64,000 bases of DNA from Cenarchaeum sp. (lineage in GTDB: Archaea > Thermoproteota > Nitrososphaeria > Nitrososphaerales > Nitrosopumilaceae). This document shows, one piece after another, positions 1,547-45,297 of the stretch. Under the pieces are notes generated by a model. The model was given only the letters and a program-made list of their open reading frames with translations, did not search any database and was not told the origin of the DNA. Position numbers and translations under genes: made by a program. How positions within the stretch are numbered: position 1 is the stretch's first letter; each line of letters starts with the position of its first letter. Location: the NCBI GenBank assembly GCA_965242695.1, contig CBDESU010000001.1, forward strand, positions 1,376,001 through 1,440,000, given 5' to 3'.

Positions 1547-2190
1547 CCAGATACTCGCTCTTCTGCCCGCATGCGCGCGGCCCTGTTCGGCCGCCGATCC
1601 GTCGACACGGCCCGCGCTGCAGCCCGCGCCCCCGCCGCAGGGGCCGCGGCGTACATCCCGGCAGCCAGCAGCGCAGCGGCAGCGCCGTGCGCTGCAACGA
1701 ACCCCCCCCCCCCAGAGTCGGGGTAGGCCATCGCGGCCACCTGCGCGCGTGCAGCGGCGGCGCGAGCACGGCCGCGGCCGCATCCCGCGCGGCCGGATGC
1801 TAGCGCTCCAGGTCCGCCGCATGCGGCGAGAACGCACAGTGCGCGGCCGAGAATGTAGACATGGGCGCCTGGCCGTGCCCCGTCGCCATGAGCGTCGCAT
1901 CCCTGTACTCGCGCAGTGCCTGCACCTGCGGGGCAAGCTCGGTCCCGTACGCGGCCGTCGCGGCTAGGCATCCGCCTCCGCCCTCGGGATCGGCCACACT
2001 GACCTGCCGAACCGAGACCAGTACCGGTTGCGACCAGGCATCCGCTTCCGCCCTCGGGATCGTCCGGCTCCGGCACGGCAACCTCATCGCGCTGCCCCGC
2101 CTCTGGGGCCATGTCTCTGTCCGGCACGCACCCGCCGCCGCTCGGCGCCATGCCGTCCCTGCACGCGATCTTGACGGCCGCCGTGGCCAA
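1543..2190 (-). pseudogene. Orphan degenerate copy of the CFI-box-CTERM tail of the giant protein
   Basis: Reads GGGGCLAATAAYGTELAPQVQALREYRDATLMATGHG, matching 3956-4510; in-frame TAG at 1800-1802, frameshifts and a 70-bp insertion. Confidence 0.85.
1957..2062. repeat. 36-bp direct duplication (1957-1992, 2027-2062) flanking a 34-bp unique insert
   Basis: gtcgcggctaggcatccgcctccgccctcgggatcg / gttgcgaccaggcatccgcttccgccctcgggatcg; the paralogous site at ~4362-4394 has one copy and no insert. Confidence 0.85.
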
Positions 2191-2515
2191 TCCCCTAGAT
2201 CAGCCACATCTAACAACGTTCGGAGCGGCGTGGTCACGCAGACCACAGCACGAGTCACTGTGACAAGGTTCAGGTTCAAGATGTCTATGGCCAGCAACAA
2301 CTTTGACATATGTGATAGGGGGCACACCTGGTGCCCAACGGCCGTGCCCGTTGCGCATAATGGGGGGGATGACAGTCAAGCCCGCAAGACACATGGATGG
2401 GCATATTAGGCTCGCGCGGTGGATGATTCGCGGCATGGGCGTCTAACACTACAGGTCTAAATGCCTGCCGGCTTGGTCGCATATGGTTATTATGCACCTA
2501 TGGCGCGGCGCCCGT

Positions 2516-2731
2516 GTGGATCCGTTCAAGGACTGTGAAAGGTTCTATACCCCCCACTTCAGGGAGCGGTTGAACCAAAGGCATGTGCCATCAGGATTTG
2601 TCGAAGAGGTACTCCAGCATGGCACCCGAGCTAGGAAGGGTGATGACTATAAAATCACCTACCGTGGATACCACATAGTTCTCGTAAAGCAGACATGTAG
2701 GCTAGTCCTAGTCACCATATTTAGAGACTAG
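2516..2731 (+). CDS. DUF4258-like small putative RNase toxin (71 aa)
   Basis: YTPHFRERLNQRHV...VEEVLQHG...LVLVTIF fits the DUF4258 pattern; TTATTAT box ~23 nt before GTG. Confidence 0.65.
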   Translation: MDPFKDCERFYTPHFRERLNQRHVPSGFVEEVLQHGTRARKGDDYKITYRGYHIVLVKQTCRLVLVTIFRD

Positions 2732-2770
2732 TCCGAGGCGCCAAGAACCTACACGCAAACGCACCGCACC

Positions 2771-3289
2771 TCACGTCATGCCAGACTCGGGGACAATGTT
2801 GTCGGTGACTGCAATGCTGACGGAATGGTTGGCCGATATGCATGGATCCCCTATGGATGTTATAATATCTGGATAGTAGTAAACGTCTGTAAGTATAGCC
2901 CTTATTCGGAGCAGTTCTTTGGGCCTGTCTTGGACAACATACTCGCACCAAGGCTCGTCCGCATGTTCTTTTACACTGTATGGCAAAATGCTGACCTTTC
3001 TATGCGATGACAGCTCACCGGCAATTGTCGTGGGTGTTTTTTTCTTGCCACGATTCACAAACATGACAGTGGTATTAGTACTAACAATGTATTTGTTGTT
3101 ATCCTCAATCACAAAGCCCTGCGGCACTTTGCTTTTGTCCATGCGCAGAACATCAACCGGTATTGTTGCCAACCGCAGAACGCCCTTCACATCGGGGTGA
3201 TCGATGTGGTACCGGTTGTACTCAAAGGTCTTCGTGCGGTACAACAGCGCCTCGAGTTCCCAGAGGTTAACTGGTGCAGAAGAAGACAT
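2771..3289 (-). CDS. Hypothetical protein, lower GC (172 aa)
   Basis: Clean ORF 3 nt downstream of the zinc-finger gene; AT-richer codon use. Confidence 0.75.
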   Translation of the reverse strand: MSSSAPVNLWELEALLYRTKTFEYNRYHIDHPDVKGVLRLATIPVDVLRMDKSKVPQGFVIEDNNKYIVSTNTTVMFVNRGKKKTPTTIAGELSSHRKVSILPYSVKEHADEPWCEYVVQDRPKELLRIRAILTDVYYYPDIITSIGDPCISANHSVSIAVTDNIVPESGMT

Positions 3290-3292
3290 GGC

Positions 3293-3685: not shown

Positions 3686-3735
3686 GGGCGGCGTGCCAAA
3701 CCGTGTAATATAACACTTTGTCCTTCCCATTCAAC

Positions 3736-3842
3736 CCGTCGGCGAGGCTCCTGCGCCCGCGAGGGCGCAGGCCGGGGGCGGACGGTGCGAAGGCTGCATA
3801 GACCAGCCGTAGGCAAGGCTCCTGCGCCCGCGAGGGCGCAGG
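3736..3842. repeat. 36-bp direct repeat pair (3736-3771, 3807-3842) with 35-bp spacer; each repeat holds a 9-bp GNRA hairpin
   Basis: ccgt(c/a)ggc(g/a)aggctcctgcgccc-gcga-gggcgcagg twice; spacer ccgggggcggacggtgcgaaggctgcatagaccag. Confidence 0.85.
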
Positions 3843-6900: not shown

Positions 6901-9900
6901 CGGACAGGCCCGCCGCATCCCCGCCCGACACGGACCAGCCGCCGGCGCCGTCCGTGCCGGCCGCGCTGACCGGCTCGTCAAACTCTACGCGTATCGTATC
7001 CAGCGATACGGCCGCGGCGGCCGATATGGACGGGTTCTGGCCGTCCGCCAGGGTCTCCGTCCGCTGCCCGGTGCCAAGGTGCCCGCCGAGGTCGTTCAGG
7101 ACGGCAGTCTCGTCGATCCGCACCGAGCCTGTCGCGTTCGGCGGCGCGCCTGCCGGGTCAAAGTTGAGGAGGTGCCTGGCCATGCCGCTCCCCTCGAGCG
7201 TCCCGATGGTCCTGTTCGCGCCGTCGACGACGAGCATCGAGTATGCAGACTGCGGCGCCGTGACGGGCCGGTCGTACTTTATGGTCGCCGTGCCCGGGCC
7301 GGTGACTCTGGCCCACTCGATCGACGGATTCCTTTCGTCCACAAGTTCCTCCATACGGTTGGCGTTGGTGCCGAGGCTGTTGGCCGGCGGCGCGGCCAAG
7401 TCCAGCACGGCCGTCGCATCTATCGTGATCGTGCCGTTGGCGTCGGGCGGGGCGGGATCTCCGCCGAACGTCACAACGTGGGTCGGCGTCGAGCTGCCGT
7501 CTAGCGAGGTGAATGTACGGGTGCCGCCCGGCGAGAAGGCCAGCCCCTTGTATGCGCCCACCTCGGCGGCGACCGGCTCGTCGTACATGACGGTCACGCT
7601 GTTGCCGCCCGCTATGATGGCCCTCACGATATCCGGTCGCTGGCCGTCGTCCAACCGCTGCGTGTACGAGGCCTCGGTACCGAGCGCATTGCCGGAGCCA
7701 TCGACCAGTACGGTCTGGTCGATGTCTATGGTTCCGGTGGCGTTTGTCGCCGACACGGCGCTGAATGTCATCTCGTGCGTTGCAGATGGGGCGCCCGTGG
7801 GGCCTGTTGGCGTGCGGGCCCCGCCCGGCGAGAGGACCAGGTTCGAGTACGCGGATGCGACGCGGACTACCGGCTCGCTGTACGTGATGGTGATGGTGCC
7901 GCTTCCCGTGATGCGCGCAGACGCCACATTCGGCCGCTGGTTGTCTTCCAGATCCTGCGGGTAGGAGGGGTTGTTTCCGAGGGGGTTGCCGAACGCGTCG
8001 AGCAGCGCTGTCTGGTCGACGGTTAGGGTGCCCGTCGCGCTGGTGGCTGCGGGCTCGCCGTCGAACGTGATCACGTGCGCCGCGTCGGCCGCGCCCGTGG
8101 GGCCCGTGACTGTGCGGGCCCCGCCCGGTGTAAGGACTAGGTTCGTGTACGCGGATGCGACGCGGACTACCGGCTCGCTGTATATTATGGTGATGGTGTT
8201 TCCGGCCGTGATGTTTGCAGAGAGGACGGTTGGCGCCCTGGCGTTGGACAGCGGCTGCGGGAAGGCGGTGGAGGTGCCGAGGGCGTTACCGGCCGCGTCG
8301 GCCAATATTGTCTGGTCGACTTGTATGGTGCCCGTCGCGCTGGTGGCTGCGGGCTCGCCGTCGAACGTGATCACGTGCGTCGTATCGGCCGCGCCCGTGG
8401 GGCCCGTGGCCGCGCGGGGCCCGCCCGGCGTGAGCACGAGGTTCGAGTACGCGCCCGCCACCCTAGTGACCGGTTCGCTGTACGTGATCGTCAGCTCCCT
8501 GCCCGCCGTGATGCGCGCCGAGTCGACATCCGGCCTCTGGCCGTCGTCCAGGGCCTGCGAAAAGGTCGCAGAGGTGCCGAGGGTGTTGCCGGCCGCGTCG
8601 GCCATGGCGGTCTGATCGACGGTTATGGTGCCCGTCGCGCTGGTGGCCGCGTCTGCTGTGGTGAATGTGATCACGTGCGTCGTATCGGCCGCGCCCGAGG
8701 GGCCCGTGGCCGCGCGGGGCCCGCCCGGCGTTAGGGCCAAGTTTGTGTACGCGGAGGCGACTCGGGTGACCGGCTCGGTGTACTCTATGGTGACGTTGCC
8801 GCTTCCCGTGACCTTGGCGGAATTGACGGCCGGCCTCTGGCCGTCGTCCAGGGCCTGCGAAAAGGTCGCAGAGGTGCCGAGGGTGTTGCCGGCCGCGTCG
8901 GCCATGGCGGTCTGATCGACGGTTATGGTGCCCGTCGCGCTAGTGGCCGCGTCTGCTGTGGTGAATGTGATCACGTGCGTCGTATCGGCCGCGCCCGTGG
9001 GGCCCGTGGCCGCGCGGGGCCCGCCTGGCGTTAGGGCCAAGTTTGTGTACGCGGAGGCGACTTGGGTGACCGGCTCGGTGTACTCTATGGTGACGTTGCC
9101 GCTTCCCGTGACCTTGGCGGAATTGACGGCCGGCCTCTGGCCGTCGTCCAGGGCCTGCGAAAAGGTCGCAGAGGTGCCGAGGGTGTTGCCGGCCGCGTCG
9201 GCCATGGCGGTCTGATCGACGGTTATGGTGCCCGTCGCGCTGGTGGCCGCGTCTGCTGTGGTGAATGTGATCACGTGCGTCGTATCGGCCGCGCCCGTGG
9301 GGCCCGTGGCCGCGCGGGGCCCGCCTGGCGTTAGGGCCAAGTTTGTGTACGCGGAGGCGACTTGGGTGACCGGCTCGGTGTACTCTATGGTGACGTTGCC
9401 GCTTCCCGTGACCTTGGCCGACTTTACCGCCGGCTTGATCTCGTCGGCGACCCCTACCATTCCGCTAGTGTCCAGCCTGTTGCCGGCCTCGTCCACGAAC
9501 CGGATCGTTGTGGGGGTGCCCCAGGTGTAGGACACCGAGACCCCGGTCGGATCGGTGTCGCTCAGGTTCCCGCTCAGCGTAAGGTCCAGGACGGTTGATC
9601 TCGACGATATGTCCGCCCTAAACGACACAGACAGGCCGCCCGCGTCGTCGCCCTGTACGAACCAGCCGCCGTCGCCGGAGGTGCCCGACGCGTTGACCGG
9701 CTCGTCGAACGTGATGCGTATTGTGTTTAGCGATATGGCCGTGGCGGCGGAGACTGAGGGGGCCTGGCCGTCGGTCAGCGGCCGGCCCAGCGGGGCAGTT
9801 CCCAGCGGGCTGTTGTTCTCGTCCAAGATGTTTTGCGCCGCGATCCTGATCGAGCCCGTCGCGCCAGAGGTCGCATTGGCATCCGTAAAGTGGATCACGT

Positions 9901-12900
9901 GCGCCTCTGCGCCGGCTCCGCCGTCCAATCCCGTCACTGCGCGCGCCGCGCCGTCGATCACGAGCGACGAGTAGTCGCTTTGCTGCGCCGTGACCGTCCT
10001 GCTGTACGTGATCGTCACGTTGCCGCTTCCCGTGACCTCTGCGGAGATGATCGACGGCGCCCTGTAGTCGGTTAGGGTGAACATCTCCGTGCCGGCCCCC
10101 ATGCTGTTGGGATACGGCGAGGCGCGATCCAGCACGGCCGCCCCGTCTATTGTGAGGGAGCCGGTCACGCGGAGGGGGGCAGGATCCCCGTCGAATGTCA
10201 CTACGTGCGTGTCCGTCGTGTTGCCCGTGAATCCCGTGACCCTGGGGTTTGTGGTGCCGATCACAAGGCCCGAGTACGCCCCCTCCGACGCATTAACCGC
10301 CTCGCTGTACCGGACGGTGAGGTTGTTGCCTCCTGTGACGGCAGTGCGCTCTACCGTGGGCCTCTGGGAGTCGAGCAGGGTCTGCGGCAGCGTGCCCGTT
10401 CCCAGTGCGATGCCGGCCGCGTCGGCCAGGGCGCCCCCGTCCACGTCCATGGTGCCCGTGGCGTTTGTCGGCACAGAGTTGCCGTGGAACGTGATCGAGT
10501 GGGACTCGTGGATGGGTCCCGGGAGGCCGGTAAGCATGCGAGGTCCGCCAGGCGAGAGGACTAGGTTTGTGTACGCGGACTGTACCTTCTTTACCGGCTC
10601 GCTGTACGTTATGGTCAGGGTATTGCCGCCCGTGACGTTGGCAGACAGGATTTCCGGCGCCTGGCCGTCGGCCAGGGTCCGGGAATAGGACGAGTCGGTG
10701 CCAAGGGCGTTGCCGACCGCGTCGGCCAGGGCGGTCTGGTCAATGTCTATGGTCCCCTCCGCGCTGGTGGCCGCCTCGGCGCCCGTGAACGTGATCACGT
10801 GCGCCGCGTCGGCCGCGCCCGTGGGGCCCGTGGCCGCGCGGGATCCGCCGGGCGAGAGGACTAGGTTAGAGTACGCGCCAGAGGGTCGGGTGACCGGCTC
10901 GCTGTACGTGATGGTCAGGTTGTTGCCGCCCGTGACGTTGGCAGACAGGATTTCCGGCGCCTGGCCGTCGGCCAGGGTCCGGGAATAGGACGAGTCGGTG
11001 CCAAGGGCGTTGCCGACCGCGTCGGCCAGGGCGGTCTGGTCAATGTCTATGGTCCCCTCCGCGCTGGTGGCCGCCTCGGCGCCCGTGAACGTGATCACGT
11101 GCGTCGTATCGGCCGCGCCCGTGGGGCCCGTGGCCGCGCGGGATCCGCCGGGCGAGAGGACTAGGTTAGAGTACGCGCCAGAGGGTCGGGTGACCGGCTC
11201 GCTGTACGTGATGGTCAGGTTGTTGCCGCCCGTGACGTTGGCAGACAGGATTTCCGGCGCCTGGCCGTCGGCCAGGGTCCGGGAATAGGACGAGTCGGTG
11301 CCAAGGGCGTTGCCGACCGCGTCGGCCAGGGCGGTCTGGTCAATGTCTATGGTCCCCTCCGCGCTGGTGGCCGCCTCGGCGCCCGTGAACGTGATCACGT
11401 GCGTCGTATCGGCCGCGCCCGTGGGGCCCGTGGCCGCGCGGGATCCGCCGGGCGAGAGGACTAGGTTAGAGTACGCGCCAGAGGGTCGGGTGACCGGCTC
11501 GCTGTACGTGATGGTCAGGTTGTTGCCGCCCGTGACGTTGGCAGACAGGATTTCCGGCGCCTGGCCGTCGGCCAGGGTCCGGGAATAGGACGAGTCGGTG
11601 CCAAGGGCGTTGCCGACCGCGTCGGCCAGGGCGGTCTGGTCAATGTCTATGGTCCCCTCCGCGCTGGTGGCCGCCTCGGCGCCCGTGAACGTGATCACGT
11701 GCGTCGTATCGGCCGCGCCCGTGGGGCCCGTGGCCGCGCGGGATCCGCCGGGCGAGAGGACTAGGTTAGAGTACGCGCCAGAGGGTCGGGTGACCGGCTC
11801 GCTGTACGTGATGGTCAGGTTGTTGCCGCCCGTGACGTTGGCAGACAGGATTTCCGGCGCCTGGCCGTCGGCCAGGGTCCGGGAATAGGACGAGTCGGTG
11901 CCAAGGGCGTTGCCGACCGCGTCGGCCAGGGCGGTCTGGTCAATGTCTATGGTCCCCTCCGCGCTGGTGGCCGCCTCGGCGCCCGTGAACGTGATCACGT
12001 GCGTTGTATCGGCGGCGCCCGTGGGGCCCGTGGCCGCGCGGGATCCGCCGGGCGAGAGGACTAGGTTAGAGTACGCGCCAGAGGGTCGGGTGACCGGCTC
12101 GCTGTACGTGATGGTCAGGTTGTTGCCGCCCGTGACGTTGGCAGACAGGATTTCCGGCGCCTGGCCGTCGGCCAGGGTCCGGGAATAGGACGAGTCGGTG
12201 CCAAGGGCGTTGCCGACCGCGTCGGCCAGGGCGGTCTGGTCAATGTCTATGGTCCCCTCCGCGCTGGTGGCCGCCTCGGCGCCCGTGAACGTGATCACGT
12301 GCGTTGTATCGGCGGCGCCCGTGGGGCCCGTGGCCGCGCGGGATCCGCCGGGCGAGAGGACTAGGTTAGAGTACGCGCCAGAGGGTCGGGTGACCGGCTC
12401 GCTGTACGTGATGGTCAGGTTGTTGCCGCCCGTGACGTTGGCAGACAGGATTTCCGGCGCCTGGCCGTCGGCCAGGGTCCGGGAATAGGACGAGTCGGTG
12501 CCAAGGGCGTTGCCGACCGCGTCGGCCAGGGCGGTCTGGTCAATGTCTATGGTCCCCTCCGCGCTGGTGGCCGCCTCGGCGCCCGTGAACGTGATCACGT
12601 GCGTCGTATCGGCCGCGCCCGTGGGGCCCGTGGCCGCGCGGGATCCGCCGGGCGAGAGGACTAGGTTAGAGTACGCGCCAGAGGGTCGGGTGACCGGCTC
12701 GCTGTACGTGATGGTCAGGTTGTTGCCTCCCGTGATGCGCGCCGAGACGACCTCGGGCGCCATCCCGTCGGCCACGCCCACCGCAGTCGAGTTCAGCTCG
12801 TTGCCGGCCGTGTCTAGGGCAGAGCCAGAGTCTTGGTCGTACGACACCTCTACCGCATCGGGCACGGTGTCCCTCAGGTTCCCGCTGAGTGCGAGCACGA

Positions 12901-33983: not shown

Positions 33984-34685
33984 TAGCCATGCCAGAGGCA
34001 GGCATGGGCAGCTTCGGATACTGCGGCAGGGGGCAGTATTGTAGGGGCGCCGCGGTTCAAGGCCAGTGGGCGCGGCGCGGCAGGCACATCCGCCGCCGCA
34101 TACGGTAGAATGCGGCCGCTTCCTGCACAACCACCGCCCTACCACAGCACCCATGTGACACCAAGGGCGGCCTCCACGTGATTGCAGATTGGAGGCACGC
34201 CGCAGCGGCAGGAGCCGTAGCCGCCACCACTGCCCGCGCAGGGCGCACAGTCAGGGGCGTCAACACATCAGATTCGTCCCCGACAGGCTCGGACGATTCG
34301 CCATTAGGGCACCTCAATCCCGATTCCAGCTACAGGGAGGCACGGTGCGGCACCCGCGGTCAGTCTTGGTGCCATCGCCAAGGCCGATCCCGCCGCCCAT
34401 GCCCCGCACTACGCCAACCAGGCCTGCCACTGCCGGTCCCGACTCACCCCTCCACTCCCCGCCGCTCATGTCGCGGCCGCCCCTGAGCATGGCACATGGC
34501 CACCCCTGCTAACGCCCCCCCCCCACCTGCGACATGCACAACTGTCATGTCCGTCTAGGGCGCCACCGTGCAACCTGTTCGCGCCGATCCACGCCTAGAC
34601 AGCGGGGTCGTCATGAGCACATACGACCAGCTGCGATCGGCCAAGAGGGATGGTTCATATAGGGCCCGTAGGCGCCGGCTCCCGT

Positions 34686-34722
34686 GGGGGTGTCGCCTCT
34701 CCAGGCGGCATCACCGAGCGTC
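34686..34722 (+). ncRNA. Candidate small RNA convergent with 34723..35886
   Basis: TTCATATAG at 34654-34662, then stem ggtgtcgcct-ctcc-aggcggcatc (34689-34712); equivalent arrangement after the paralogue. Confidence 0.4.
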
Positions 34723-35886: not shown

Positions 35887-36332
35887 AGCGGCCTTCATTC
35901 CGCCTTCTATAACAGTGTTTAGCATGGCACGCAGGGTGTGTTTGGGCCGCCGCGAGCGTCAATCTGCCCCCGTGTGGCATACGAGTACAAGGATGTCAAT
36001 GCCTGCCACTGTCGCACATTGTCCCGTGCATGCACGGCAGTCCATGGATCAAGTCAGGCAGCAGCTGCGCGGTCTTGCGATCCCAAGCGGCGGGCCGTGC
36101 ACAATCACCTACGGGGATCGTGTGCAATCGGGGGTCGATATCCGCCGATGATGCCAGCCGTGGAGCCTAGGCCGGCGGCAGGGAGCGCATCCCGGGGGCT
36201 TGTGCCCACTGCGCTCGAAGGCTTTGGAGGTGGCGCGTCCGGCAGCCTGCGGCGCCGCGCTCGATTCCCGGGGCACAGAGGCGCCGTCATGGCGCCCCCT
36301 GCGCCCCCGCCTCGTGCAGGGAGTGCGCCCGG

Positions 36333-36437
36333 GGCGCACCATCGCGCCGCACTAGCCCTGCAACACACCCGCCTGTCGGCGGGGCCGGCGGCGATCTCGC
36401 GGTGGCGCACCATCGCGCCGCACTAGCCCTGCAACAC
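36333..36437. repeat. 34-bp perfect direct repeat (36333-36366, 36404-36437) with 37-bp spacer
   Basis: ggcgcaccatcgcgccgcactagccctgcaacac twice. Confidence 0.9.
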
Positions 36438-36776
36438 GCCCTCTCCCCCCCTGTCAGGGGTCCCACGCGGCTCAACGGAGTGCGACGGTTACTTAAGAGG
36501 CCTTCAGAAGGGTTGGAGTCTACTCAGCCCACCCGTCCGCGGCCCGACGCCCGGACGTGACGCTCAGAGATCCCGCCAGGGCATGCGAAGGCTCGACAGG
36601 GATGCCAGCAGTGGCACGCAGGCGCCTGCCGCTCGCCCGCGGGCGCCAGGACCGGCGATGTCCAAGGCCGCACGAAACCGTGGCTACAACATCTCCTAGG
36701 CCACCCCCCCCCCCTCCCGAGCCGCGCCAAGATGTCCGCTCCAAACGGATAATAGGCGGGGTGCCAAGGATCTCGC

Positions 36777-39251
36777 ATGCGGGACGCCTACAGCCTGTTC
36801 GAGACCGTGTGCTCCAAGGGCACAAGCGAGGAATATGGGCAGTGGGAGGTAAAGCGGGCGGCAAAGCCGTACATAGACTACCTCAAGGAGGTGCAGGAAT
36901 GGCACATGGACAGGTCCGTGTCATGGAAGGTCAGGCGCCCGGGCGAGGGCAGGGGGAGGGGAGCCGGAGGCAGGCCGAATGCGCCAAGCGGGCAGAGGCG
37001 GCAGAAGGGCACTCCCATCAGCCTAGAGGGAGTGGACGATGCCGATCTGCGGCGCATCGTCGACGCCGCACGGACGCTAGGCCACGTGTACGAGTACGAC
37101 CCCGACGACGGTCCAAGGGTGAGCAGGGACGACATGATAGGCGTCACGGGAATCGACGAGGATGAGCTGCTCATCTGGCTTGAGCGCAGCCCCACCAAGC
37201 CCTGCCTCAAGGCGGAGCGGAGCACGTACCAGGAGGCGATGGCCGTCAGGGCGATGGAGGAGATGCTGTACAGGCCGAGCAGGGCCCACATGCCGCTGCG
37301 CAGGCTGTTCCGCAGGAAGAGCGGCGCGGCATGGCCGCGCTTCAAGGGGCGGCGGGTCGACAGGTGGTTCTTCCTGAGCGGCGACGTCGACGGGGCCGAC
37401 GAGCAGAGGCGGTTCGTGCGGATCGCCCTGGGCACGCCGGACTTTGCGTTCCTAGAGGGGCCGCCGGGCTCGGGCAAGACTGCCGTCCTGTGCGAGCTGG
37501 CCGTGCAGATGGCGGTGCGCGGCAAGCGCGTCCTGTTCTGCGCATCGACGAACGTCGCAGTCGACAACCTGATCGAGCGCATGGTCGAAAAGGGCGGCGA
37601 CGTTATGAGGCACGTGGCGCCGGTCAGGATAGGCAGGTCGGACAAGGTCTCGGAGGCGGCGTCCCGCTACGAGTACGGCAGGTTCGCGCGAACCGTCGGG
37701 GAGAAGATGCATGCTGCCATCTCGGGGCGCAAGTCCAGGAGCGGGGCGCAGGAGGCGATGCTCAAGGTGCTGGAAGGAGGGGACGAGGAGGCGCTCGGAG
37801 GCATGGTGCGCGACCACGCCAACCTGGTGTGCGGAACGACCATTGGCATGCTGTCCCATCCGGACATACGGAACAGGACGCTGCGCCGGTTCGACATGAT
37901 GATCCTCGACGAGGCGTCCAAGACGACGCTGCAGGAGTTCCTCGTGCCCGCCGTGCATGCAGACAGGTGGATCATAGCCGGCGACACGCGGCAGCTGGTC
38001 CCGTACACCGACAGTGCCGACATGGCCGTGCACGTGGGCGCATGCATCGAGCCCGAGGAGGGGGAGGCATGCCTTGACGCATTCATGGCCAAGAAGCGCG
38101 GGCAGACGACCGTGCTGGTCGGCATCGGGCCGGCGGCGGAAGCGGCGTACAGGGCGCAGTGCGAAAGGCTTGGCGTGAAGATTCAACGTGGCAGCGCAGG
38201 CGGCATCGAAAGGGGGGAGGTCGTGATCTGGGGCGGGGCGGCAGGGGATGCGCCGAAGAGGCCCGGCGTCGTGCTGAGGGGCGCGGCAGGGGATGCGGCA
38301 GATCCGCGCCGCGGCAGGGGAGGAGGGGGAGAGCGGACATGGTCCGAAGAGGTGGCGTGGCGCATAGGAATCCACTGGCACGGCATGCAGGGCGCAAAGG
38401 GCGGGCGCGGCGAGGGCCTTGGCGAAGAGATCGACATGCTCATGCCAGCGCGCGACGGCGGGGACGAGGTGCGCCAGCAGGTCGACAGGGTCAGGCGGAT
38501 CGCAGTCCCGTCGGTGCTAGAGGTCATTCAGGACGGCTTCCCCGGCGGCCACGTCGACGGCGACACGCTCTTGGAGCACGGCATGCCGTGCGACGACTTT
38601 GGCAGGAGGCATGCGCTGCTCGAGTGGCAGCACAGGATGCACCCCGATATTGCGGCGTTCTCCCACCGGCACGTGTACGGGGGGCTCGCCCTCAGGACTC
38701 CGGACGGCATGGCGGAGAGGCGCGCCTGGATCTACGGCAGGTACAGCCACAGGGCGGTGTGGATCGACGTGAGGGGAAGGGGCTCGGACGGGGCCGGATC
38801 GGTATCGAACGAGGACGAGGCGAGGCTCATGGCCGGCGAGGTCGGGGCGTTTGCGGAGTTTGCCAAGAAGAACCGGCGCCCCGGCGGCGGGCCGTGGGAG
38901 GTCGCCGTGCTGCCGTTCTATGCGGGCCAGCTGAGGCTGCTGCAGAGGCACATGCGCAGGCTCGCGCAGGGCGGCGGGCCGCACACGTTCCGCATCCCGC
39001 CCGAAAGGCCTTGCGTCCTGGTGGGGCTTCACACGGTCGACTCGTTCCAGGGCCACGAGGCGGACTTTGTCCTGATCGGGCTGACCAACTCCCACCCGAC
39101 CCTGTTCCTGGGCAACCCGAACCGCCTCAACGTGGCCCTGACGCGGGCGCGCTACCAGTGCGCGATCTTCGGCGACAGGGCCGCCATGTCCAGGGAGCCG
39201 CTCCTTGCGGACCTTGTGCGCGAGACCCGGCACTGGAAGGGGGTGGCGTAG
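36777..39251 (+). CDS. SF1B (Upf1/DNA2-like) helicase
   Basis: GPPGSGKT, ILDEASK, AGDTRQL, QHRMHPDI, TVDSFQGHEAD, NRLNVALTRAR. Confidence 0.92.
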   Translation: MRDAYSLFETVCSKGTSEEYGQWEVKRAAKPYIDYLKEVQEWHMDRSVSWKVRRPGEGRGRGAGGRPNAPSGQRRQKGTPISLEGVDDADLRRIVDAARTLGHVYEYDPDDGPRVSRDDMIGVTGIDEDELLIWLERSPTKPCLKAERSTYQEAMAVRAMEEMLYRPSRAHMPLRRLFRRKSGAAWPRFKGRRVDRWFFLSGDVDGADEQRRFVRIALGTPDFAFLEGPPGSGKTAVLCELAVQMAVRGKRVLFCASTNVAVDNLIERMVEKGGDVMRHVAPVRIGRSDKVSEAASRYEYGRFARTVGEKMHAAISGRKSRSGAQEAMLKVLEGGDEEALGGMVRDHANLVCGTTIGMLSHPDIRNRTLRRFDMMILDEASKTTLQEFLVPAVHADRWIIAGDTRQLVPYTDSADMAVHVGACIEPEEGEACLDAFMAKKRGQTTVLVGIGPAAEAAYRAQCERLGVKIQRGSAGGIERGEVVIWGGAAGDAPKRPGVVLRGAAGDAADPRRGRGGGGERTWSEEVAWRIGIHWHGMQGAKGGRGEGLGEEIDMLMPARDGGDEVRQQVDRVRRIAVPSVLEVIQDGFPGGHVDGDTLLEHGMPCDDFGRRHALLEWQHRMHPDIAAFSHRHVYGGLALRTPDGMAERRAWIYGRYSHRAVWIDVRGRGSDGAGSVSNEDEARLMAGEVGAFAEFAKKNRRPGGGPWEVAVLPFYAGQLRLLQRHMRRLAQGGGPHTFRIPPERPCVLVGLHTVDSFQGHEADFVLIGLTNSHPTLFLGNPNRLNVALTRARYQCAIFGDRAAMSREPLLADLVRETRHWKGVA

Positions 39252-39272
39252 TCGATCGTCCTCGAGGCCAGC

Positions 39273-40376
39273 GTGCAGGTCGAGTGCCATGTGATCCACG
39301 CCGACATGGCCCTGTCGGCCGACGTGCCGCACAATGTGCCCATCCTGGAGCATCTGAGGGAGCGCGGCGGAGGGGCGACCGCGGCGTCCCTGTCGGAGGA
39401 GCTGTTCCTGATCGAGCCGGTGTGCAGGAGCCTGCTCGCCTTTTGCGGCGAGAACGGGCTGGCGGAGGAGGCCGGAGGGGGGCGCTACGCGATCACGCCC
39501 GAAGGGACGGCCGCGCTCGGGAGCGGCAGGGCATTCACGCGCAGGGAGGGCATGTGGAAGGTGTACGTCGCCAGCCACGGGGCGATCCCCGAGGGTGCCG
39601 AGGTGGTGAGGATCGAAGACGGCTCGACGGAGGCAGGATACATGCCGTGGATGGGGGACAGGCAGCCCGCGGCCAAGAGGCTGGGGCCGGCTGCGCGGGC
39701 CCTGGAGGGGGCCACGCTGCGCCCCGCGCTCGGGACGGCAAGGGAGGCGGTCGTGCGCGACATCCACGGGAACGAGAAGGAGATCGAGGCGGACATGTCG
39801 CTGAGGCTTCGCATCAGGCTGGACGGAGGAGGCGGGGCGGGGGCGACCCTGCTGGCGTCGAGGGACGGGGGAGTGGCGGGGCGGGGGCGCACACCCGGCT
39901 TGCCGGGCGAGGCGGCCCTGCCCTGCGCGCCAGTAACGGAGGACATGGCCATGGAGTCGCTGCTGGACGGCGAGCGCGGCATGGAATGGGACGCCAAAAA
40001 CGGGCGCATTGCGGCGGACTACGACTGCCTGTCCGACGAGGAACGGTCGAGCATGCGAAAGACGATGCGGTTCGAGGACGTCGAGATAGGAGGGATGAGG
40101 TTCGAGGCCGCGCTGGTGACGGCCGGCGTGTTCCCGCAAAACGAGGCGGACGCCAGAAAGTGGGCCCGCCACCTGTTTGCCGACATGGCCGCGGACTATG
40201 TGACGCGCGAGGAGTACGAGCGCCTGGCAGGCTCGATCGAGAAGCGGCTCGAGTACTTTGACGCAGGAATGGGGGACCGCGCCGGCCACGTGCCCAAAGG
40301 TGGCGGCGGGCGCGGAGCCCGGCGCCGCCCGCGCCTGTTCTGGCTTGTGCAGGCGATGGAGGACTGGGACCTGTGA
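39273..40376 (+). CDS. Uncharacterised protein with probable N-terminal winged helix
   Basis: Operonic between helicase and PLD; ...ENGLAEEAGGGRYAITPEG is wHTH-like; start uncertain (frame open from 39252). Confidence 0.75.
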   Translation: MQVECHVIHADMALSADVPHNVPILEHLRERGGGATAASLSEELFLIEPVCRSLLAFCGENGLAEEAGGGRYAITPEGTAALGSGRAFTRREGMWKVYVASHGAIPEGAEVVRIEDGSTEAGYMPWMGDRQPAAKRLGPAARALEGATLRPALGTAREAVVRDIHGNEKEIEADMSLRLRIRLDGGGGAGATLLASRDGGVAGRGRTPGLPGEAALPCAPVTEDMAMESLLDGERGMEWDAKNGRIAADYDCLSDEERSSMRKTMRFEDVEIGGMRFEAALVTAGVFPQNEADARKWARHLFADMAADYVTREEYERLAGSIEKRLEYFDAGMGDRAGHVPKGGGGRGARRRPRLFWLVQAMEDWDL

Positions 40377-41425
40377 CCGGCGCGGGCGCGGGAAGGACCC
40401 CGGGCAGAGAGTTCGAGTGGGCAGGCAATCCGCGGTACAGGACGAGTAGGAAAGATTCGACGAAAAGAGTGACCGGGATCATCGACGGGGCCCGCGAGGT
40501 CCTGGTCGCATCGACCTTTCTGCTGGCCGACGACAGGGTGGCCGATGCCCTGCTCAGGGCGGCGGACAGGGGTGCTAGGTGCTACCTGCTGATGGCCGCA
40601 GAGGCGCGCCTGAGGAGGGACGAGGGGACCGAGTTTGAGCAGAGGGCGCACCGCAACCACGTCGGGACGCTGCGCAGGCTCGGCGACGGGAACGCCGTAC
40701 TGGTCCGCTCGGCCGACGAGTTCCACGCAAAGGCCGTCGTGGCCGACCCCATGTCGGACAGGCCGAGCGGCATTGTAATGACGGCCAACCTTACGCGCGA
40801 GGCGCTCTCCCGCAACCAGGAGCTGTTCGTCGACCTGACCGAGGGCGAGGCGCGGGAGGCAGGGAGGGTCCTGCGCGAGGCGCTCTGGGAGCGGGCCACG
40901 CACGAGCTGGCTGACGGCGACCTGCGCAGCTGCAAGCCGCTCGGCAAGGTCGGGCCCGCGGCCACGGGCAGGGTGCTGCAGGGCGGCTCGAACCCGCAGC
41001 TGCGCGAGAGGCTGTACGGGATGCTCGATGCTGGGCCGAAAAAAGTCGCCGCCTCGAGCTTTGGGTGGGACGAGTCGCACCCCGTCGTCGACCGCCTCTG
41101 CCGGCTGGCCGAGGGAGGGACGGACGTGACGATCCTGGCGCGCGCGGGCAGGCCGGCCGCAATGGGAGCCCTAGAGAGGCTGCGGGTGGCAGGGGCACGG
41201 GTCGCGGGGTTTTCGTGGCTGCACGCAAAGGCCGTGGCGACCGAGTCCGAGGCGGTCGTAATGTCGGCGAACATCGAGCCGCAGGGCCTCGAGAGGGGGT
41301 TCGAGATGGGCATTGCGCTCGGCGGCAGGAGGGCGGCCGACGTCAGGGGCGCGCTGGACAGGTGGGCATCGAACCCGGAGTTTGTGCTGTTCAAGAGGCA
41401 GGGCGGCGCGCGTCCAGCCAAGTGA
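40373..41425 (+). CDS. Double PLD-domain (HKD) nuclease-like protein
   Basis: FHAKAVVAD...MTANLT and LHAKAVATE...MSANI; GTGA overlap with the upstream stop. Confidence 0.88.
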   Translation: MTGAGAGRTPGREFEWAGNPRYRTSRKDSTKRVTGIIDGAREVLVASTFLLADDRVADALLRAADRGARCYLLMAAEARLRRDEGTEFEQRAHRNHVGTLRRLGDGNAVLVRSADEFHAKAVVADPMSDRPSGIVMTANLTREALSRNQELFVDLTEGEAREAGRVLREALWERATHELADGDLRSCKPLGKVGPAATGRVLQGGSNPQLRERLYGMLDAGPKKVAASSFGWDESHPVVDRLCRLAEGGTDVTILARAGRPAAMGALERLRVAGARVAGFSWLHAKAVATESEAVVMSANIEPQGLERGFEMGIALGGRRAADVRGALDRWASNPEFVLFKRQGGARPAK

Positions 41426-41708
41426 TCTGGCCAGGGCGGTCGAAGATGCACGGCGCGGGCGCGGGCGGCGGCATCTAGGGCGGCCTGTTCCTTTGTGCAT
41501 GGGCGCCGCTTCAATGCCCGCCCGCCGCCGCCGCCGCTGCGCCGGGCAGTCGGGGGCCAGCCTGCCGCTTTTTGCATCGCCAAGTATCCAAGCCAGGCGG
41601 CGCCGCAGTCACGACGGCGCAGGATGACGCATTCTGCGCGCGGCATTCGCGCACCTCCGACTCCATGCCCCGCCATCTTTGCATGGCAGGTGCATCGGGC
41701 ACCTGCCA

Positions 41709-42671
41709 TTGAGCCAGCTGCGCGGCGCCGCCTCCATCGCGGCAGTAGTGGCCGTTCTGGCCGCGTGTGCACCACTCCAGGCCGACGAGGTGCACACCCA
41801 ACAGGGCGATCGGGTGCCGGCGTGGGTAAAGCAGGTCTGGGTTCTATGTCGACGAGCAGAGATCCGAGGCGAGTCCCTCGGCGCCCTGGCACACCTCATA
41901 GAGAACGGCATCATGAAGGTATCAGAGCCCGATGAACGCGGCATTGCGGACAGGGGCGACTTTTGCGTAGTGTACGAGGTAAATCCAAACTCGGCGCGCA
42001 TGGAGCGCGGCACGGCCGCGTCATGGCTAGAGGGCACGCGCCTGCTCGACGACAACGTAGAGTGGCTCAACTCCGTCTACAGGCTCCCGCAAGACGTCGA
42101 GGTCAGGGCGGCCGAGTGCGGCACGGTCAACGCGTTCTACAGCCCGGGCGAAAGGGCGATCATCATGTGCTACGAGCTTGTGACGCACCTCCTTGACGCG
42201 GGGTACGAGATGTACGGCGGCGACCCCGACGCGGCCGAGGACTTTGCCTACAACGTCCTTGACGGCGTCATGCTGCACGAGGTCGGGCACGCCCTCGTCG
42301 ACGTGTACGACCTTCCGACGACCGGCATGGAAGAGGACGCCGTCGACCAGTTTAGCGCCATGATCCAGTCGCGCACGTACGACGAGCACGATCCCACCTA
42401 CGACGTGGGGCGGATAATGATGCTCGACGTGAGCGACTGGTGGGACTACGAGTCGCAGTACGGGCCGTCCCGCTACTGGGACGTCCACTCGCTCGACGAG
42501 CAGCGGTTCTACAACATTGCCTGCTACGCGTACGGGTCGGATCCCGTCGGCAACGCCGACCTGGTCGGCATCGACTACCTGCATCCTAGCAGGGCAAAGA
42601 CCTGCCCACAAGAGTACAAGCAGATGTCGTCGAGCTGGGATCGGCTCTTGGACGGGTACCTGGTCGAGTAG
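41709..42671 (+). CDS. DUF4344-like metallopeptidase, copy 3 (compensated frameshift in N-terminal motif)
   Basis: HEVGH and EEDAVD intact; FGFYVDGQISEGEL replaced by its alternative-frame reading WVLCRRAEIRGES. Confidence 0.8.
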   Translation: MSQLRGAASIAAVVAVLAACAPLQADEVHTQQGDRVPAWVKQVWVLCRRAEIRGESLGALAHLIENGIMKVSEPDERGIADRGDFCVVYEVNPNSARMERGTAASWLEGTRLLDDNVEWLNSVYRLPQDVEVRAAECGTVNAFYSPGERAIIMCYELVTHLLDAGYEMYGGDPDAAEDFAYNVLDGVMLHEVGHALVDVYDLPTTGMEEDAVDQFSAMIQSRTYDEHDPTYDVGRIMMLDVSDWWDYESQYGPSRYWDVHSLDEQRFYNIACYAYGSDPVGNADLVGIDYLHPSRAKTCPQEYKQMSSSWDRLLDGYLVE

Positions 42672-42990
42672 GGGCGGCAGTAGCGGACGGGGCCAGGCGC
42701 GCGCATGCGGGCGCATCAGCCTGTCGCGCGGCGCATCCAGGCATTTTGCACGTTTATAGCACTGGCCCGGCGGCCAGCGGGCATGCCTAGGCAGAGCAGG
42801 GGCCCGGCTGAAAGTCCGACAGGCGCAGGCGCCTGCGCGGGTAGGCCGATTGCCGGCGCTCCCGCAGCGCGATCTGCGCTGCCCCGCATCCCGCAGGAAC
42901 GGGGCCGGCGCGAAGGGGGCGCCCGGAGGCACGCCAGATCCCGCATGTGGCCGGCGGCGCCGGCGCGGGGCCGCGTGGGGTGACGGCGGC

Positions 42991-44139
42991 ATGAAGATCG
43001 CGCTGTTCCTAGGGGCAGGCGCATCCACGCCGTACGGCATGCCGACGACGAGTGAGCTGCTGGAGAGGATCCGGCGCGGCGCGGCGGACATTCCGCTCAA
43101 GGGCCTCTTGGACAGCCCCGACGTCTCCGACATCGAGCATGTCCTGGCCGCGCTCAACGATGTGGGGCAGTTTGCGGGGTCGCCCGGCGGCAGGGCCTAC
43201 GCCAAGTCGGCCAAAGACGAATTCCCCAGCTATGCCGCCGCCGCGGCTCAAGCCAAAAGGGCCATAGAAGAGTGCATGTACGCCAGCTACCGGTGGGATC
43301 CAGATCACAACCACACCGCAGAGTCGGTGCTGGGCATGCTTTTCAGGTTCGTCCGGGAGAGCGGGGGCCGTGCCACGGTCTTTACCACCAACTTTGACAC
43401 CGCCGTAGAGGAGTACTGCAAGAGCTCCCCCGAGAACGTCGGCGAGATCATCCGGTACGTCGACGGATTCGCCCCCAACGGGGCGAGAAACATGATCGTG
43501 TGGAAGAACGACTTTTCCGGCGGCGGCGGCGGCGGCGGCGGACAGGAGGTGCTCCTGTACAAGCTGCACGGATCGCTGAGCTGGTCGTCTAGGCGCAACT
43601 CCGACATGTACCTCATCGGCTCCCGCATTCCGGATGCCATAGTCCAAAAGCCCGACACGAGCCCGTCGGACGACACGAGCCGTGACGTGTACATACGGCC
43701 GCTGCTCGACGTCAAGGACGAGGCCACGCGGAAGAGCCCGTACTCCGAGATAAACAGAGCGTTCAGGAAGGCGCTCCCGTCGTTCGACGCGTGCGTTGCG
43801 ATCGGGTACTCGTTCAGGGATCGGCACATGCGCGAAACGTTCCTGCGCTTCGTCGAAAGGGGCAAGAAGCTGATCGTGGTGAGCCCCACCGCCGCGGCCG
43901 ACGTCCACAAAAACATCGTAGGGTGGGATCCCAAGGAAGGCGATCCGGAAGAGTGGGCAGGGCATCCGGTGTGCCACCTCTCGTACAGGGGGCCGCGCGG
44001 CGAGGGGGAGGTCTACGCCGTCCACCGCAAGATCGGCGCGGACGAAATGAACGACGTGCTGAACGCCGTGGAGTCGATCATCAAGGAGGAAGCCTCGCCC
44101 CACCGCATCGAGCCGCTGGCGCTCAACCCCGACTGCTGA
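42991..44139 (+). CDS. SIR2-family (SIR2_2-like) NADase-type protein
   Basis: LFLGAGAS..GMPT, FTTNFD, YKLHGSL, IGYSFRD. Confidence 0.9.
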   Translation: MKIALFLGAGASTPYGMPTTSELLERIRRGAADIPLKGLLDSPDVSDIEHVLAALNDVGQFAGSPGGRAYAKSAKDEFPSYAAAAAQAKRAIEECMYASYRWDPDHNHTAESVLGMLFRFVRESGGRATVFTTNFDTAVEEYCKSSPENVGEIIRYVDGFAPNGARNMIVWKNDFSGGGGGGGGQEVLLYKLHGSLSWSSRRNSDMYLIGSRIPDAIVQKPDTSPSDDTSRDVYIRPLLDVKDEATRKSPYSEINRAFRKALPSFDACVAIGYSFRDRHMRETFLRFVERGKKLIVVSPTAAADVHKNIVGWDPKEGDPEEWAGHPVCHLSYRGPRGEGEVYAVHRKIGADEMNDVLNAVESIIKEEASPHRIEPLALNPDC

Positions 44140-44226
44140 CCGCGGCTCGTCGCGGCCTACGCCAGGCACCGCCCCCCGCCCCCGCACCCCGCTAGCCTTA
44201 CATGGCAGGGGCATCCGGCGCCGGCC

Positions 44227-45192
44227 ATGAGGCGCCTTCATGTCGCCGCCTGCATCGCGGCGGTGGCGGCGGTTGTCGCGGCCGCAATTCCGCTCCTGGC
44301 CGAAGAGGCGCACGCGCAGCAGGAGGGCGATCGGGTGCCGGCGTGGGTAAAGCAGGTGTTCGGGTACTACGTGAACGGGCAGATATCCGAGGACGAGATC
44401 CTCGGCGCCCTAAAGTACCTCATAGAGAACGGCATCATGGAGGTCGCAGAGCCCGAGGATCGCGGCATTGCCGACAGGGGCGACTTTTACGTAGAGTACG
44501 GCCCAAACCCGAGCTCGCCGTACCCCGACTACACGGCGGCCGAGTGGCTCCAGGACATGCGCCTGCTCGACGACAATGCGGGGTGGCTCAACGACAACTA
44601 CAGGCTCCCGTACGACGTCAAGGTCGAGGGCGCCGAGTGCGGCACGGAGAACGCGTTCTACATCCCGGGCAAAAAGGCGATTAGAATGTGCTACGAGCTC
44701 GTCGATGCCGCCTTCAGGGCCGGCGATGCCGTGTACGGCGGCGATCCAGAGGCGGCCGTCGAGTTCGCCTACAACGTCGTAGACGGCATCATGATGCACG
44801 AGGTAGGGCATGCACTCGTCGACGTGTACGACCTTCCGACGACCGGCATGGAGGAGGATGCGGTCGACCAGTTCAGCGCCCTCATACAGTCGCGGACGTA
44901 CGGCGACTACGATCCCTACTACGAGACGGGGCGGAACATGATGCTCGACATGGCCGGATGGTGGGACTACATGTCGCAGTATACGGAGGCCCCATACAGG
45001 GCTGTCCACTCGCTCAACGAGTAGAGGTTCTACAACCTTGCATGCTACGTGTACGGGGCCGACCCAGAGTACAACCGGGACCTGCTTGGCTTCGACTACC
45101 TCCCCCAGTCGAGGGCAAAGACCTGCCCCGGCGAGTACGAGCGGATGTCGTCGAGCTGGGACAGGCTCTTGGACGGGTACCTGGTCGGGTAG
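44227..45192 (+). pseudogene. DUF4344-like metallopeptidase, copy 4, with premature TAG
   Basis: CAG->TAG at 45022-45024 versus copy 1; the frame continues to the usual end; promoter region shared with copy 1. Confidence 0.85.
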
Positions 45193-45297
45193 GGGCGGCG
45201 GCCGACAGGACCGGCGCAGGTGGTCCCACTTTGCAAGGAAAGATATGCGCGCGGCGATCTTCGGGCGGCGGCCGACAGGACCGGCGCAGGTGGTCCC
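45193..45297. repeat. 35-bp perfect direct repeat (45193-45227, 45263-45297) with 35-bp spacer
   Basis: gggcggcggccgacaggaccggcgcaggtggtccc twice; spacer actttgcaaggaaagatatgcgcgcggcgatcttc. Confidence 0.9.

Follow-up and report, generated by a model that had tools for sequence, protein, structure and literature searches.

Insertion sequences and casposons both leave target site duplications made by an integrase, and the casposase is a homologue of Cas1; their duplications are much shorter than those considered here and enclose kilobase-scale cargo bounded by terminal inverted repeats. Off-target spacer integration by the type I-E Cas1-Cas2 of E. coli, which gives rise to 'neo-CRISPR' loci, was reportedly described by Nivala, Shipman and Church in 2018 (Nat Microbiol), and the off-target sites used by over-expressed Cas1-Cas2 in E. 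coli are said to carry a leader-repeat-like motif. An excerpt from a paper citing the E. coli work calls natural occurrence unclear, with circumstantial evidence only, from two other species. For type I-G adaptation in Geobacter sulfurreducens and Methanosarcina barkeri, published work (PMC6547450, PMC10504553) describes Cas4/1-Cas2 and a leader downstream of cas2, predominant spacers of 36 bp, a TTN PAM and a repeat ending in AGC. According to the same work, the Cas1 domain can trim non-PAM ends without sequence preference, and the products of some substrates in a plasmid assay suggest non-specific integration. In Haloarcula hispanica, a repeat-length ruler is anchored by motifs within the repeat (PMC4872114), and in Streptococcus thermophilus ectopic spacer acquisition takes place inside arrays (PMC7999890).

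The window analysed here is a stretch of 64,000 nucleotides from a Cenarchaeum sp. genome. All four repeat-insert-repeat loci that the original prediction had placed in it are present in the sequence, with periods of 70-71. Their repeats had been called mutually unrelated, and indeed no kinship was found among the four repeat sequences. The features are as follows (no strand is assigned to any of them).

1957-1995, no strand: locus 1, copy 1 of the duplicated target, paired with 2027-2065 at period 70
1996-2026, no strand: locus 1, spacer-like insert of 31-34 nt (length varies with the boundary chosen)
2027-2065, no strand: locus 1, copy 2 of the duplicated target
3736-3771, no strand: locus 2, copy 1 of the duplicated target, 36 nt, paired with 3807-3842
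3772-3806, no strand: locus 2, inserted fragment, 35 nt
3807-3842, no strand: locus 2, copy 2 of the duplicated target
36333-36366, no strand: locus 3, copy 1 of the duplicated target, 34 nt when the source delimits the insert
36367-36403, no strand: locus 3, inserted fragment, 37 nt
36404-36437, no strand: locus 3, copy 2 of the duplicated target
45193-45227, no strand: locus 4, copy 1 of the duplicated target, 35 nt, paired with 45263-45297
45228-45262, no strand: locus 4, inserted fragment, 35 nt, 51% GC
45263-45297, no strand: locus 4, copy 2 of the duplicated target
45407-45499, no strand: candidate fifth, older and weaker locus, 25-nt copies, period 68, 88%

The copies of locus 1 are 87% identical over 39 nt and 96% identical over a best-conserved 27-nt core (1966-1992), with boundaries that are uncertain by ~3 nt. 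Locus 2 (period 71, 94% identity) is flanked by a 145-aa ORF and by the end of a 7160-aa ORF, and its duplicated target includes a CTGCGCCC..GGGCGCAG hairpin. When locus 3 is delimited as a repeat pair, it comprises 36333-36370 and 36404-36441 (period 71, 97%). Its insert is identical in 36/37 positions (33 nt perfect, one mismatch, three matches) to C2:706045-706081 of the same genome (G000), a source ~5 kb away from the genome's single orc1/cdc6 gene. Locus 4 (period 70, 100% identity) begins directly after the TAG that closes the homology of a DUF4344 paralogue; this paralogue is without the insertion and has diverged too far for a clean test. The inserts of loci 1, 2 and 4 have no match elsewhere in the genome, and neither a 28-nt core of the locus 2 insert nor a 27-nt core of the locus 4 insert has an exact match in viral_contigs. 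The copies of the candidate fifth locus (45407-45431 and 45475-45499) are under the threshold of the genome scan, and the locus was left out of the counts. The window had been said to contain no cas gene. For cas1 this is correct (the sole copy is found ~279 kb upstream), and no cas family was detected in the 11 window ORFs scanned with Pfam.

The 3.89-Mb genome was scanned for direct repeats at periods of 30-160, with the canonical CRISPR array excluded. Periods of 67-74 account for 104/266 isolated two-copy repeats, i.e. 13 pairs per period, whereas other periods average 0.98. A looser scan yielded 127 loci at 67-74, compared with 29 at periods 50-66 and 33 at 75-100. The period profile is thus not flat, and it shows a sharp peak at 70-73, as the original prediction had anticipated. 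The loci of the window are far beyond chance and are members of a genome-wide class, which is distributed evenly along both contigs (chi-square p = 0.50). A perfect 34-nt core is present in 42/127 loci of the looser scan, which indicates recent events. Among the 16 perfect ectopic pairs (length 34-38, period 69-74), the copies are 34-38 nt long (35-38 in 15/16) and the inserts 33-38 nt. One ectopic site has been used twice (C2:173431-173609; three 36-nt copies, inserts of 36 and 35 nt), and all other ectopic loci found have two copies only. The earlier suggestion that arrays are seeded de novo is borne out by this one three-repeat locus, and such seeding is rare.

The only cas1 in the genome (C1:1096922-1098883) encodes a type I-G Cas4/Cas1 fusion, which matches NF049935 cas4g_cas1g with 688 bits (cut-off 560) over the full model length. 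It is adjoined by cas2, the product of which matches PF09827 (E = 3.5e-17) and TIGR01573. About 200 nt past cas2 starts the sole canonical array of the genome, with 330 repeats of 36 nt and spacers of 34-38 nt; its periods (70:30, 71:77, 72:121, 73:66, 74:28) have their mode at 72. On the other side of the array, open frames encode Cas3g (603 bits, cut-off 400), Cas7g (Csb1; 142, cut-off 38) and Csb2 (219, cut-off 45); a Cas8g2 match of 111 bits is under the cut-off of 125. In the comparison with a resident array that had been proposed, the ectopic peak matches the 36-nt repeat and the periods of 70-74. We consider it highly probable that the loci arose when the resident type I-G Cas4/1-Cas2 integrated spacers off-target (ectopically) in full-site reactions, and that they are the scars of such events. 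Geometry and co-occurrence in a few related genomes point to this complex as the likely catalyst. The ruler-based integrase of the original prediction is supported by the geometry, and the "unknown" enzyme that it also considered is not needed, because the resident I-G adaptation module explains this geometry.

The match between ectopic loci and array has one deviation. The mean ectopic period is 70.85, compared with 71.98 in the canonical array, i.e. 1.1 nt shorter (p = 2e-9), and a short-period tail at 67-69 comprises 21/104 ectopic loci but only 2/329 canonical spacers. We can explain the shorter periods only by assuming that the ruler is looser at non-cognate sites. The shift would also fit scars made by another Cas1-Cas2 of the same geometry, which could have come with a mobile element or from a second system since lost. 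At C2:312248-312348 there is an orphan mini-array of two repeats, variant but I-G-like, so that the genome may formerly have had a further I-G array or system. We nevertheless judge such a source to be very unlikely, since the genome has only one cas1, the loci with perfect cores are recent, and the same peak is seen in two sister species whose 36-nt repeat is identical or similar.

These two species (G004 and G002), which are congeners, have I-G and a 36-nt repeat, and in 400-kb samples 14/23 and 26/46 of their isolated pairs, respectively, are at periods 67-74. G017, which also has I-G, gave a weak signal (2/6 pairs in a 400-kb sample). In G004 and G017 the layout is the same, with cas2 beside Cas4/1 and the leader and array downstream. 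Two congeners with no Cas1g match (G001 and G003) had 0/4 pairs each at these periods in 400-kb samples, and two with other Cas1 types (G026 and G013) had 0/0 and 0/1 in 200 kb; the genomes compared are few, related and not independent, and differ also in GC content and size. Taken as a tally, scars occur in 3/3 sampled I-G genomes and in 0/4 sampled genomes without Cas1g. This distribution, and the fact that duplication and insert have the lengths of the canonical repeat and spacer, make it very unlikely that a non-Cas1 integrase or mobile element with a stagger of ~36 bp inserted the 35-nt fragments, even though such an enzyme would agree with target sites that have no motif tied to the CRISPR leader or repeat and with insert sources that have no PAM. 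We know of no transposon that combines a 36-bp duplication with sequence-variable 35-bp cargo.

The inserts had originally been described as foreign. At least 13% come from the own genome: 14/108 match other sites of it (30-38 nt, 89-100% identity), compared with 2/329 canonical spacers (0.6%; Fisher p = 1e-7), and the remaining 94/108 are without a self match. Since these 14 are near-full-length copies of distant sequences, tandem duplications with diverged halves, the case that had been named as speaking against integration, do not explain the inserts. Around the sole orc1/cdc6 gene, 5/16 self protospacers lie within 33 kb (Poisson p = 3e-7, which is post hoc because the region was chosen after the fact); PolD and GINS are encoded in the same neighbourhood, where the cumulative GC skew also reaches an extremum. 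A PAM shared by the insert sources had been proposed as a further check, and no PAM selection is apparent: a TTN flank is present at only about 1/14 self protospacers, and the normal Cas4-dependent route thus apparently was not used.

GC-rich genomes often contain short direct repeats, and in the public contigs of four runs, which were inspected for empty alleles, none was seen; these contigs break inside the repeats and thus give no independent confirmation of the junctions. Both observations could be taken to mean that the loci arose by replication slippage or tandem duplication or are assembly artefacts. Slippage would not be expected to prefer a period, yet the peak is sharp. This reading is further contradicted by the inserts copied from distant loci, by the recurrence of the pattern in three separately assembled species and by the signature of selection described below, and we give it hardly any credence.

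With a crude gene caller, 58/108 loci are intergenic, compared with ~24% of the genome (p = 4e-11), and the same caller places 16/35 period-72 loci in genes, compared with 5/26 period-71 loci. In 2/2 alignable in-frame genic cases, the homologues of the sister species G004 are without 22-24 residues that correspond to repeat-insert-repeat. The empty alleles sought by the original prediction are thus represented by these two genic cases, in contrast to the public contigs. Two further genes were uninformative as to the absence of the insertion in homologues.

An orientation-aware motif search at the targets found no leader-like or repeat-like motif. The targets share 14.2/36 matches with the canonical repeat, compared with 13.8/36 in GC-matched random controls (p = 0.035), and are no more like it than GC-matched sites. 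The only target signals are a high GC content (77%) and a 5'-terminal G on each duplicated strand (59%). An array of two repeats has the same geometry, and decayed remnants of ordinary CRISPR arrays or horizontally acquired mini-arrays could account for it. However, the repeats are unrelated between loci and resemble the canonical repeat no more than those control sites do, and the duplicated sequence is ordinary local DNA, including coding sequence that is single-copy in homologues. An origin from arrays is contradicted by these data and is exceedingly improbable.

Ectopic integration by Cas4/1-Cas2 could proceed as follows. The complex would load a processed prespacer of ~35 nt. Both of its 3' ends would attack ordinary chromosomal DNA, one on each strand, at points ~36 bp from each other, this distance being fixed by the complex itself. 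Gap repair would then duplicate 36 bp on each side of the insert. Target choice at these sites is nearly sequence-free, GC-rich DNA and a 5' G on each duplicated strand being all that is preferred. The fragments integrated show no TTN PAM, and many are chromosomal, notably from around the replication origin. Selection would purge most genic insertions, and intergenic and in-frame ones (69 or 72 nt) would remain. Parts of this scheme are inferred, namely the role of Cas4/1-Cas2 as catalyst, the sequence of chemical steps and a route independent of the PAM. What the data themselves show is the geometry and its agreement with the array, the copying of inserts from other sites, the mark of selection, homologues that are without the insertions, and the joint occurrence with I-G.

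Going further, the I-G integrase may be a standing, nearly sequence-blind mutator, which writes PAM-less fragments chromosome-wide, many of them shed around the replication origin, leaves 100 or more visible scars per genome, adds 23-24-residue segments to proteins and occasionally founds new arrays. We put this forward tentatively, as a serious possibility that still falls somewhat short of being probable. If it is true, whatever the adaptation machinery captures is recorded in these genomes naturally and without filtering, and they are also a live example of CRISPR array birth and of the host cost of adaptive immunity.

The mechanism as such is already known from E. coli, mainly in the laboratory, and it is the natural scale that looks new. 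Our literature search on ectopic or off-target integration found no account of a natural genome-wide pattern, which is not proof that none exists, nor any of this scale in nature for archaea or for type I-G. More than 100 off-target integrations per genome, in several species, are apparently the work of a native archaeal I-G system, and the mutational cost of CRISPR adaptation thereby may become measurable from sequence alone. The ectopic loci would constitute a record of capture that is unfiltered by autoimmunity, with a hotspot at the replication origin. They would show the 36-bp ruler at work without any cognate repeat, and exemplify, in nature, how arrays are born and how proteins gain short in-frame insertions. 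The enzyme is also a candidate for a DNA writer of relaxed specificity.

The E. coli I-E neo-CRISPR loci reportedly share with the present loci a spacer-length insert outside the array, a repeat-length target duplication and the possible seeding of arrays. In contrast to them, the system here is native rather than over-expressed, archaeal and of type I-G, with ~36 + 35 nt; no leader-like target motif was detected, and 100 or more fixed scars per genome have been left in at least three species, with a selection signature and in-frame protein insertions. The Cas4/Cas1 fusion with Cas2, the leader downstream of cas2, the predominant spacer length of 36 bp and the repeat ending in AGC are shared with the published I-G systems cited above. 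Canonical I-G integration targets the leader-repeat junction and selects TTN-flanked fragments, whereas the ectopic loci have neither feature. As in Haloarcula hispanica, integrase and site together determine how long the duplication is; the ectopic sites differ from that case in being without cognate mid-repeat motifs, and this may be why ectopic periods are broader and shorter. Integration away from the leader-proximal repeat is also described for Streptococcus thermophilus, but there it occurs at genuine repeats within arrays, and here in unrelated chromosomal sequence. Finally, unlike in casposons and insertion sequences, the 'cargo' here is a different 33-38-nt fragment each time.

The four repeat-insert-repeat loci of the original prediction were found in the window at the positions claimed, and their repeat sequences are indeed mutually unrelated. 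The two target copies of each locus and a fifth, weaker pair are as follows.

Target duplications in the window (target copies; period in nt; identity of the copies)
Locus 1: 1957-1995 and 2027-2065; period 70; 87%
Locus 2: 3736-3771 and 3807-3842; period 71; 94%
Locus 3: 36333-36370 and 36404-36441; period 71; 97%
Locus 4: 45193-45227 and 45263-45297; period 70; 100%
Fifth, weaker pair: 45407-45499; 25-nt copies; period 68; 88%

The neighbouring genes include a 7160-residue open frame (3956-25438, minus strand), probably a giant repetitive surface protein, with two runs of 300-nt tandem repeats at 7791-9434 and 10593-12735, the second 97-99% identical. At 33015-48480, paralogues of a DUF4344 putative metallopeptidase (at 33015, 41679 and 44227, with further copies nearby in the genome) are interspersed with an SF1 helicase, a SIR2-like protein and AAA ATPases. 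The paralogue whose end lies at 45192 is apparently frameshifted.

The window corresponds to C1:1376001-1440000. Both contigs (C1 and C2) of the genome, which comprises 3.89 Mb at 67.5% GC and carries an archaeal small-subunit rRNA, were scanned for direct repeats over all periods between 30 and 160, with a seed of at least 23 matches in 24. The canonical CRISPR array, tandem arrays and places matched at several periods were excluded. After filtering, 266 isolated two-copy repeats remained, 104 of which had a period of 67-74 nt. The sharp peak near 70 nt that the original prediction anticipated is therefore present: counts at periods 67 to 74 were 5, 8, 8, 12, 26, 35, 9 and 1, against a mean of 0.98 loci per period (maximum 10) outside this range, period 102 being set aside. 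That second spike (40-57 loci, e.g. C1:610373 and C1:612338) consists of 34-residue TPR units in many TPR-repeat genes and is unrelated to the scars. A looser scan (27/34 matches) gave 127 loci at 67-74, compared with 29 at 50-66 and 33 at 75-100. Loci are evenly distributed across both contigs (p = 0.50). In the 16 perfect pairs listed, copies measure 34-38 nt (35-38 in 15 of them) and inserts 33-38 nt. Sorted by mismatches in the best 34-nt window, from 0 to 7, the 127 loci number 42, 14, 18, 15, 12, 8, 12 and 6; as many have zero or few mismatches, many events are recent. Older loci thin out, probably by decay below detection or by direct-repeat deletion, which would restore the original site. 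One scar is found in two places 1.4 kb from each other, between the same flanking sequences (C2:21121-21227 and C2:22582); a segmental duplication has copied it after its formation.

The sole CRISPR array of the genome (C1:1072688-1096404) contains 330 copies of a 36-nt repeat, with periods of 70 (30 cases), 71 (77), 72 (121), 73 (66) and 74 (28). The geometry of the scars matches this repeat length and these periods. The sole cas1 adjoins the array and encodes a 653-residue Cas4/Cas1 fusion, which scores above the cut-off of the curated type I-G model (688 bits against 560) and is followed by cas2. Open frames for Cas3g, Cas7g and Csb2 lie at the opposite side of the array, together with a Cas8g2 match slightly under its cut-off. 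The scars are very probably the product of off-target, full-site spacer integration by the resident type I-G Cas4/1-Cas2. It is very improbable that an integrase other than this module wrote them, and just as hard to credit that a second Cas1-Cas2, since lost, did so. In the orientation of the cas genes, the canonical repeat ends in ...CCCCATTGAAGC, degenerate repeats are found at the array end far from cas2, and the same array/cas layout occurs in two relatives, which together place the leader adjacent to cas2. Within the array (C1:1076528-1077866), a block of seven spacers (54-60) recurs exactly as spacers 66-72, which is an internal duplication. An orphan two-repeat mini-array (C2:312248-312348, period 68) has a variant of the I-G repeat that shares the ...CCCCATTGAAG end but has a different stem. 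Just past the interference genes are two ISH3-like transposase genes (C1:1057810-1059216 and C1:1064464-1065819).

Samples of seven comparison genomes were scanned alongside two samples of the present genome.

Isolated pairs at periods 67-74 in sampled genomes (relatives are few, mutually related, sampled at 200-400 kb each, and of differing GC content and genome size)
Present genome, two samples: I-G yes; 400 kb each; 8/31 and 18/41; 68% GC
G002, same genus: I-G Cas4/Cas1 match; 400 kb; 26/46; 67% GC
G004, same genus: I-G Cas4/Cas1 match; 400 kb; 14/23; 69% GC
G017, another genus: I-G Cas4/Cas1 match; 400 kb; 2/6; 38% GC
G001, same genus: no I-G Cas4/Cas1 match; 400 kb; 0/4; 57% GC
G003, same genus: no I-G Cas4/Cas1 match; 400 kb; 0/4; 51% GC
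G013: no I-G, weaker match to another Cas1 type; 200 kb; 0/1; 36% GC
G026: no I-G, weaker match to another Cas1 type; 200 kb; 0/0; 40% GC

The scar peak and the I-G module co-occur, which is not proof of a causal relationship. All three I-G relatives (G002, G004 and G017) have 36-nt repeats. The genus members searched measure 3.2-3.9 Mb at 67-69% GC with I-G, and 1.8-2.0 Mb at 51-57% GC in the two without it; since the scars that can be recognised total only about 8 kb, they do not explain this size difference.

The inserts are captured DNA. When 108 inserts from loci with periods of 66-75 were compared with the whole genome, 14 had near-full-length matches elsewhere (30-38 nt, 89-100% identity), as opposed to 2 of the 329 canonical spacers (Fisher p = 1e-7). 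Two further apparent matches, a local collagen-like repeat and the whole-locus duplicate with its flanks (C2:21121, C2:22582), were set aside. The insert of locus 3 is identical to C2:706045-706081 in 36 of 37 positions. The prediction of foreign inserts thus fails for these 14 of 108, locus 3 included. For the insert cores of loci 4 and 2, an exact scan of viral_contigs produced no match. Of the 16 self protospacers, five (four from ectopic inserts and one from a canonical spacer) are situated in C2:673297-706077, where 0.13 would be expected by chance (Poisson p = 3e-7, for a region picked after the data had been seen). This region contains the genome's single orc1/cdc6 gene as well as GINS and both subunits of PolD, and cumulative GC skew along C2 reaches its maximum near 680 kb. 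This suggests that the adaptation machinery draws on DNA around the replication origin, which would feed the pool of fragments.

A shared PAM at the insert sources, which the original prediction proposed to look for, was not found: a TTN flank on either side occurred in about 1 of 14 ectopic sources, which is roughly chance level. Canonical spacers showed no terminal-base bias that could be used for orienting ectopic inserts. Only two canonical spacers, 246 (C1:1090347) and 320 (C1:1095675), match the chromosome, both perfectly and both with TTA on the leader-distal side. Given that the rule published for I-G puts TTN upstream (PMC6547450), these two cases would be in flipped orientation and would not target the chromosome, so that their self-matches would be tolerated; the PAM inference draws on 14 ectopic sources and 2 canonical ones. 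Ectopic loci may make no working guide RNA and so escape selection against autoimmunity, which would fit their excess of self inserts.

An orientation-aware search of 62 duplication-centred sites revealed no target motif (no position exceeded 0.31 bits), and likeness of the targets to the canonical repeat is marginal only. Ectopic targets have 77% GC, compared with 67.5% for the genome, and G is the 5' nucleotide of each duplicated strand in 59%, against about 41% expected from boundary effects alone (p = 7e-5). Folding was more stable for intergenic targets (-11.7 kcal/mol) than for random intergenic 36-mers (-8.7 kcal/mol; p = 2e-6), but with targets at 77% GC and a control that was not GC-matched, we make no claim for a hairpin preference. 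The mean ectopic period lies 1.1 nt below the canonical one, and periods of 69 or less account for 21/104 ectopic but 2/329 canonical cases. These shorter periods may reflect the intrinsic spacing of the complex when it works without repeat-internal anchors, such as are described for other systems (PMC4872114). At C2:173431-173609, an ordinary 36-nt chromosomal sequence is present in three copies with two inserts (a "neo-array"); the two identical copies are both at one end, a placement that reuse of the new repeat would predict.

According to a crude GC3-based gene caller, 58 of the 108 loci are intergenic, compared with about 24% of the genome (p = 4e-11). The caller placed 16/35 period-72 and 5/26 period-71 loci in genes, but many of the 37 loci that it called genic appear to lie in spurious frames, and all these counts are approximate. 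The genic cases that proved convincing when inspected have a period of either 69 or 72. For two genic loci, empty sites could be identified in a sister genome: the best G004 homologues (53% and 55% identity) have a single copy of the duplicated segment and lack the 22-24 residues of the insertion. Two further genes were uninformative in this respect: at C1:1455385 the homologue aligns solely downstream of the locus, and the locus at C1:1262756 is upstream of the likely true start. A paralogue considered as an empty site for window locus 4 lacks 84 nt, but was rejected because the region has diverged. Five public runs from two studies, one possibly the source sample, contain 0.80-0.98 of the words sampled from window 36001-46000; no RNA datasets were among the runs listed. 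No joint skipping 70-71 nt was listed in the contigs of four runs across window 35501-46500. These contigs end inside repeat copies (36362, 36408, 45268), as short-word assemblies do, and thus neither show polymorphism nor bridge the junctions.

Slippage, assembly error and decayed arrays were considered as other sources of such repeats. They are contradicted by the sharp period and the distant origin of inserts, by the selection signature and the single-copy homologues, and by the recurrence of the pattern in separately assembled species.

Our literature searches on ectopic and off-target integration uncovered no earlier description of such a natural pattern on a genome-wide scale. Off-target integration and the formation of new arrays have been demonstrated for over-expressed E. 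coli I-E Cas1-Cas2; a preprint citing that work calls the natural frequency unclear and mentions circumstantial evidence from two other species. The position of the leader beside cas2 corresponds to that in the published Geobacter I-G system, whose spacers are predominantly 36 bp long and whose repeat has the same AGC end (PMC6547450). For one I-G Cas4/1 in vitro, it is described that the Cas1 domain trims without sequence dependence, and that some substrates yield a smear of products suggesting non-specific integration sites (PMC10504553).
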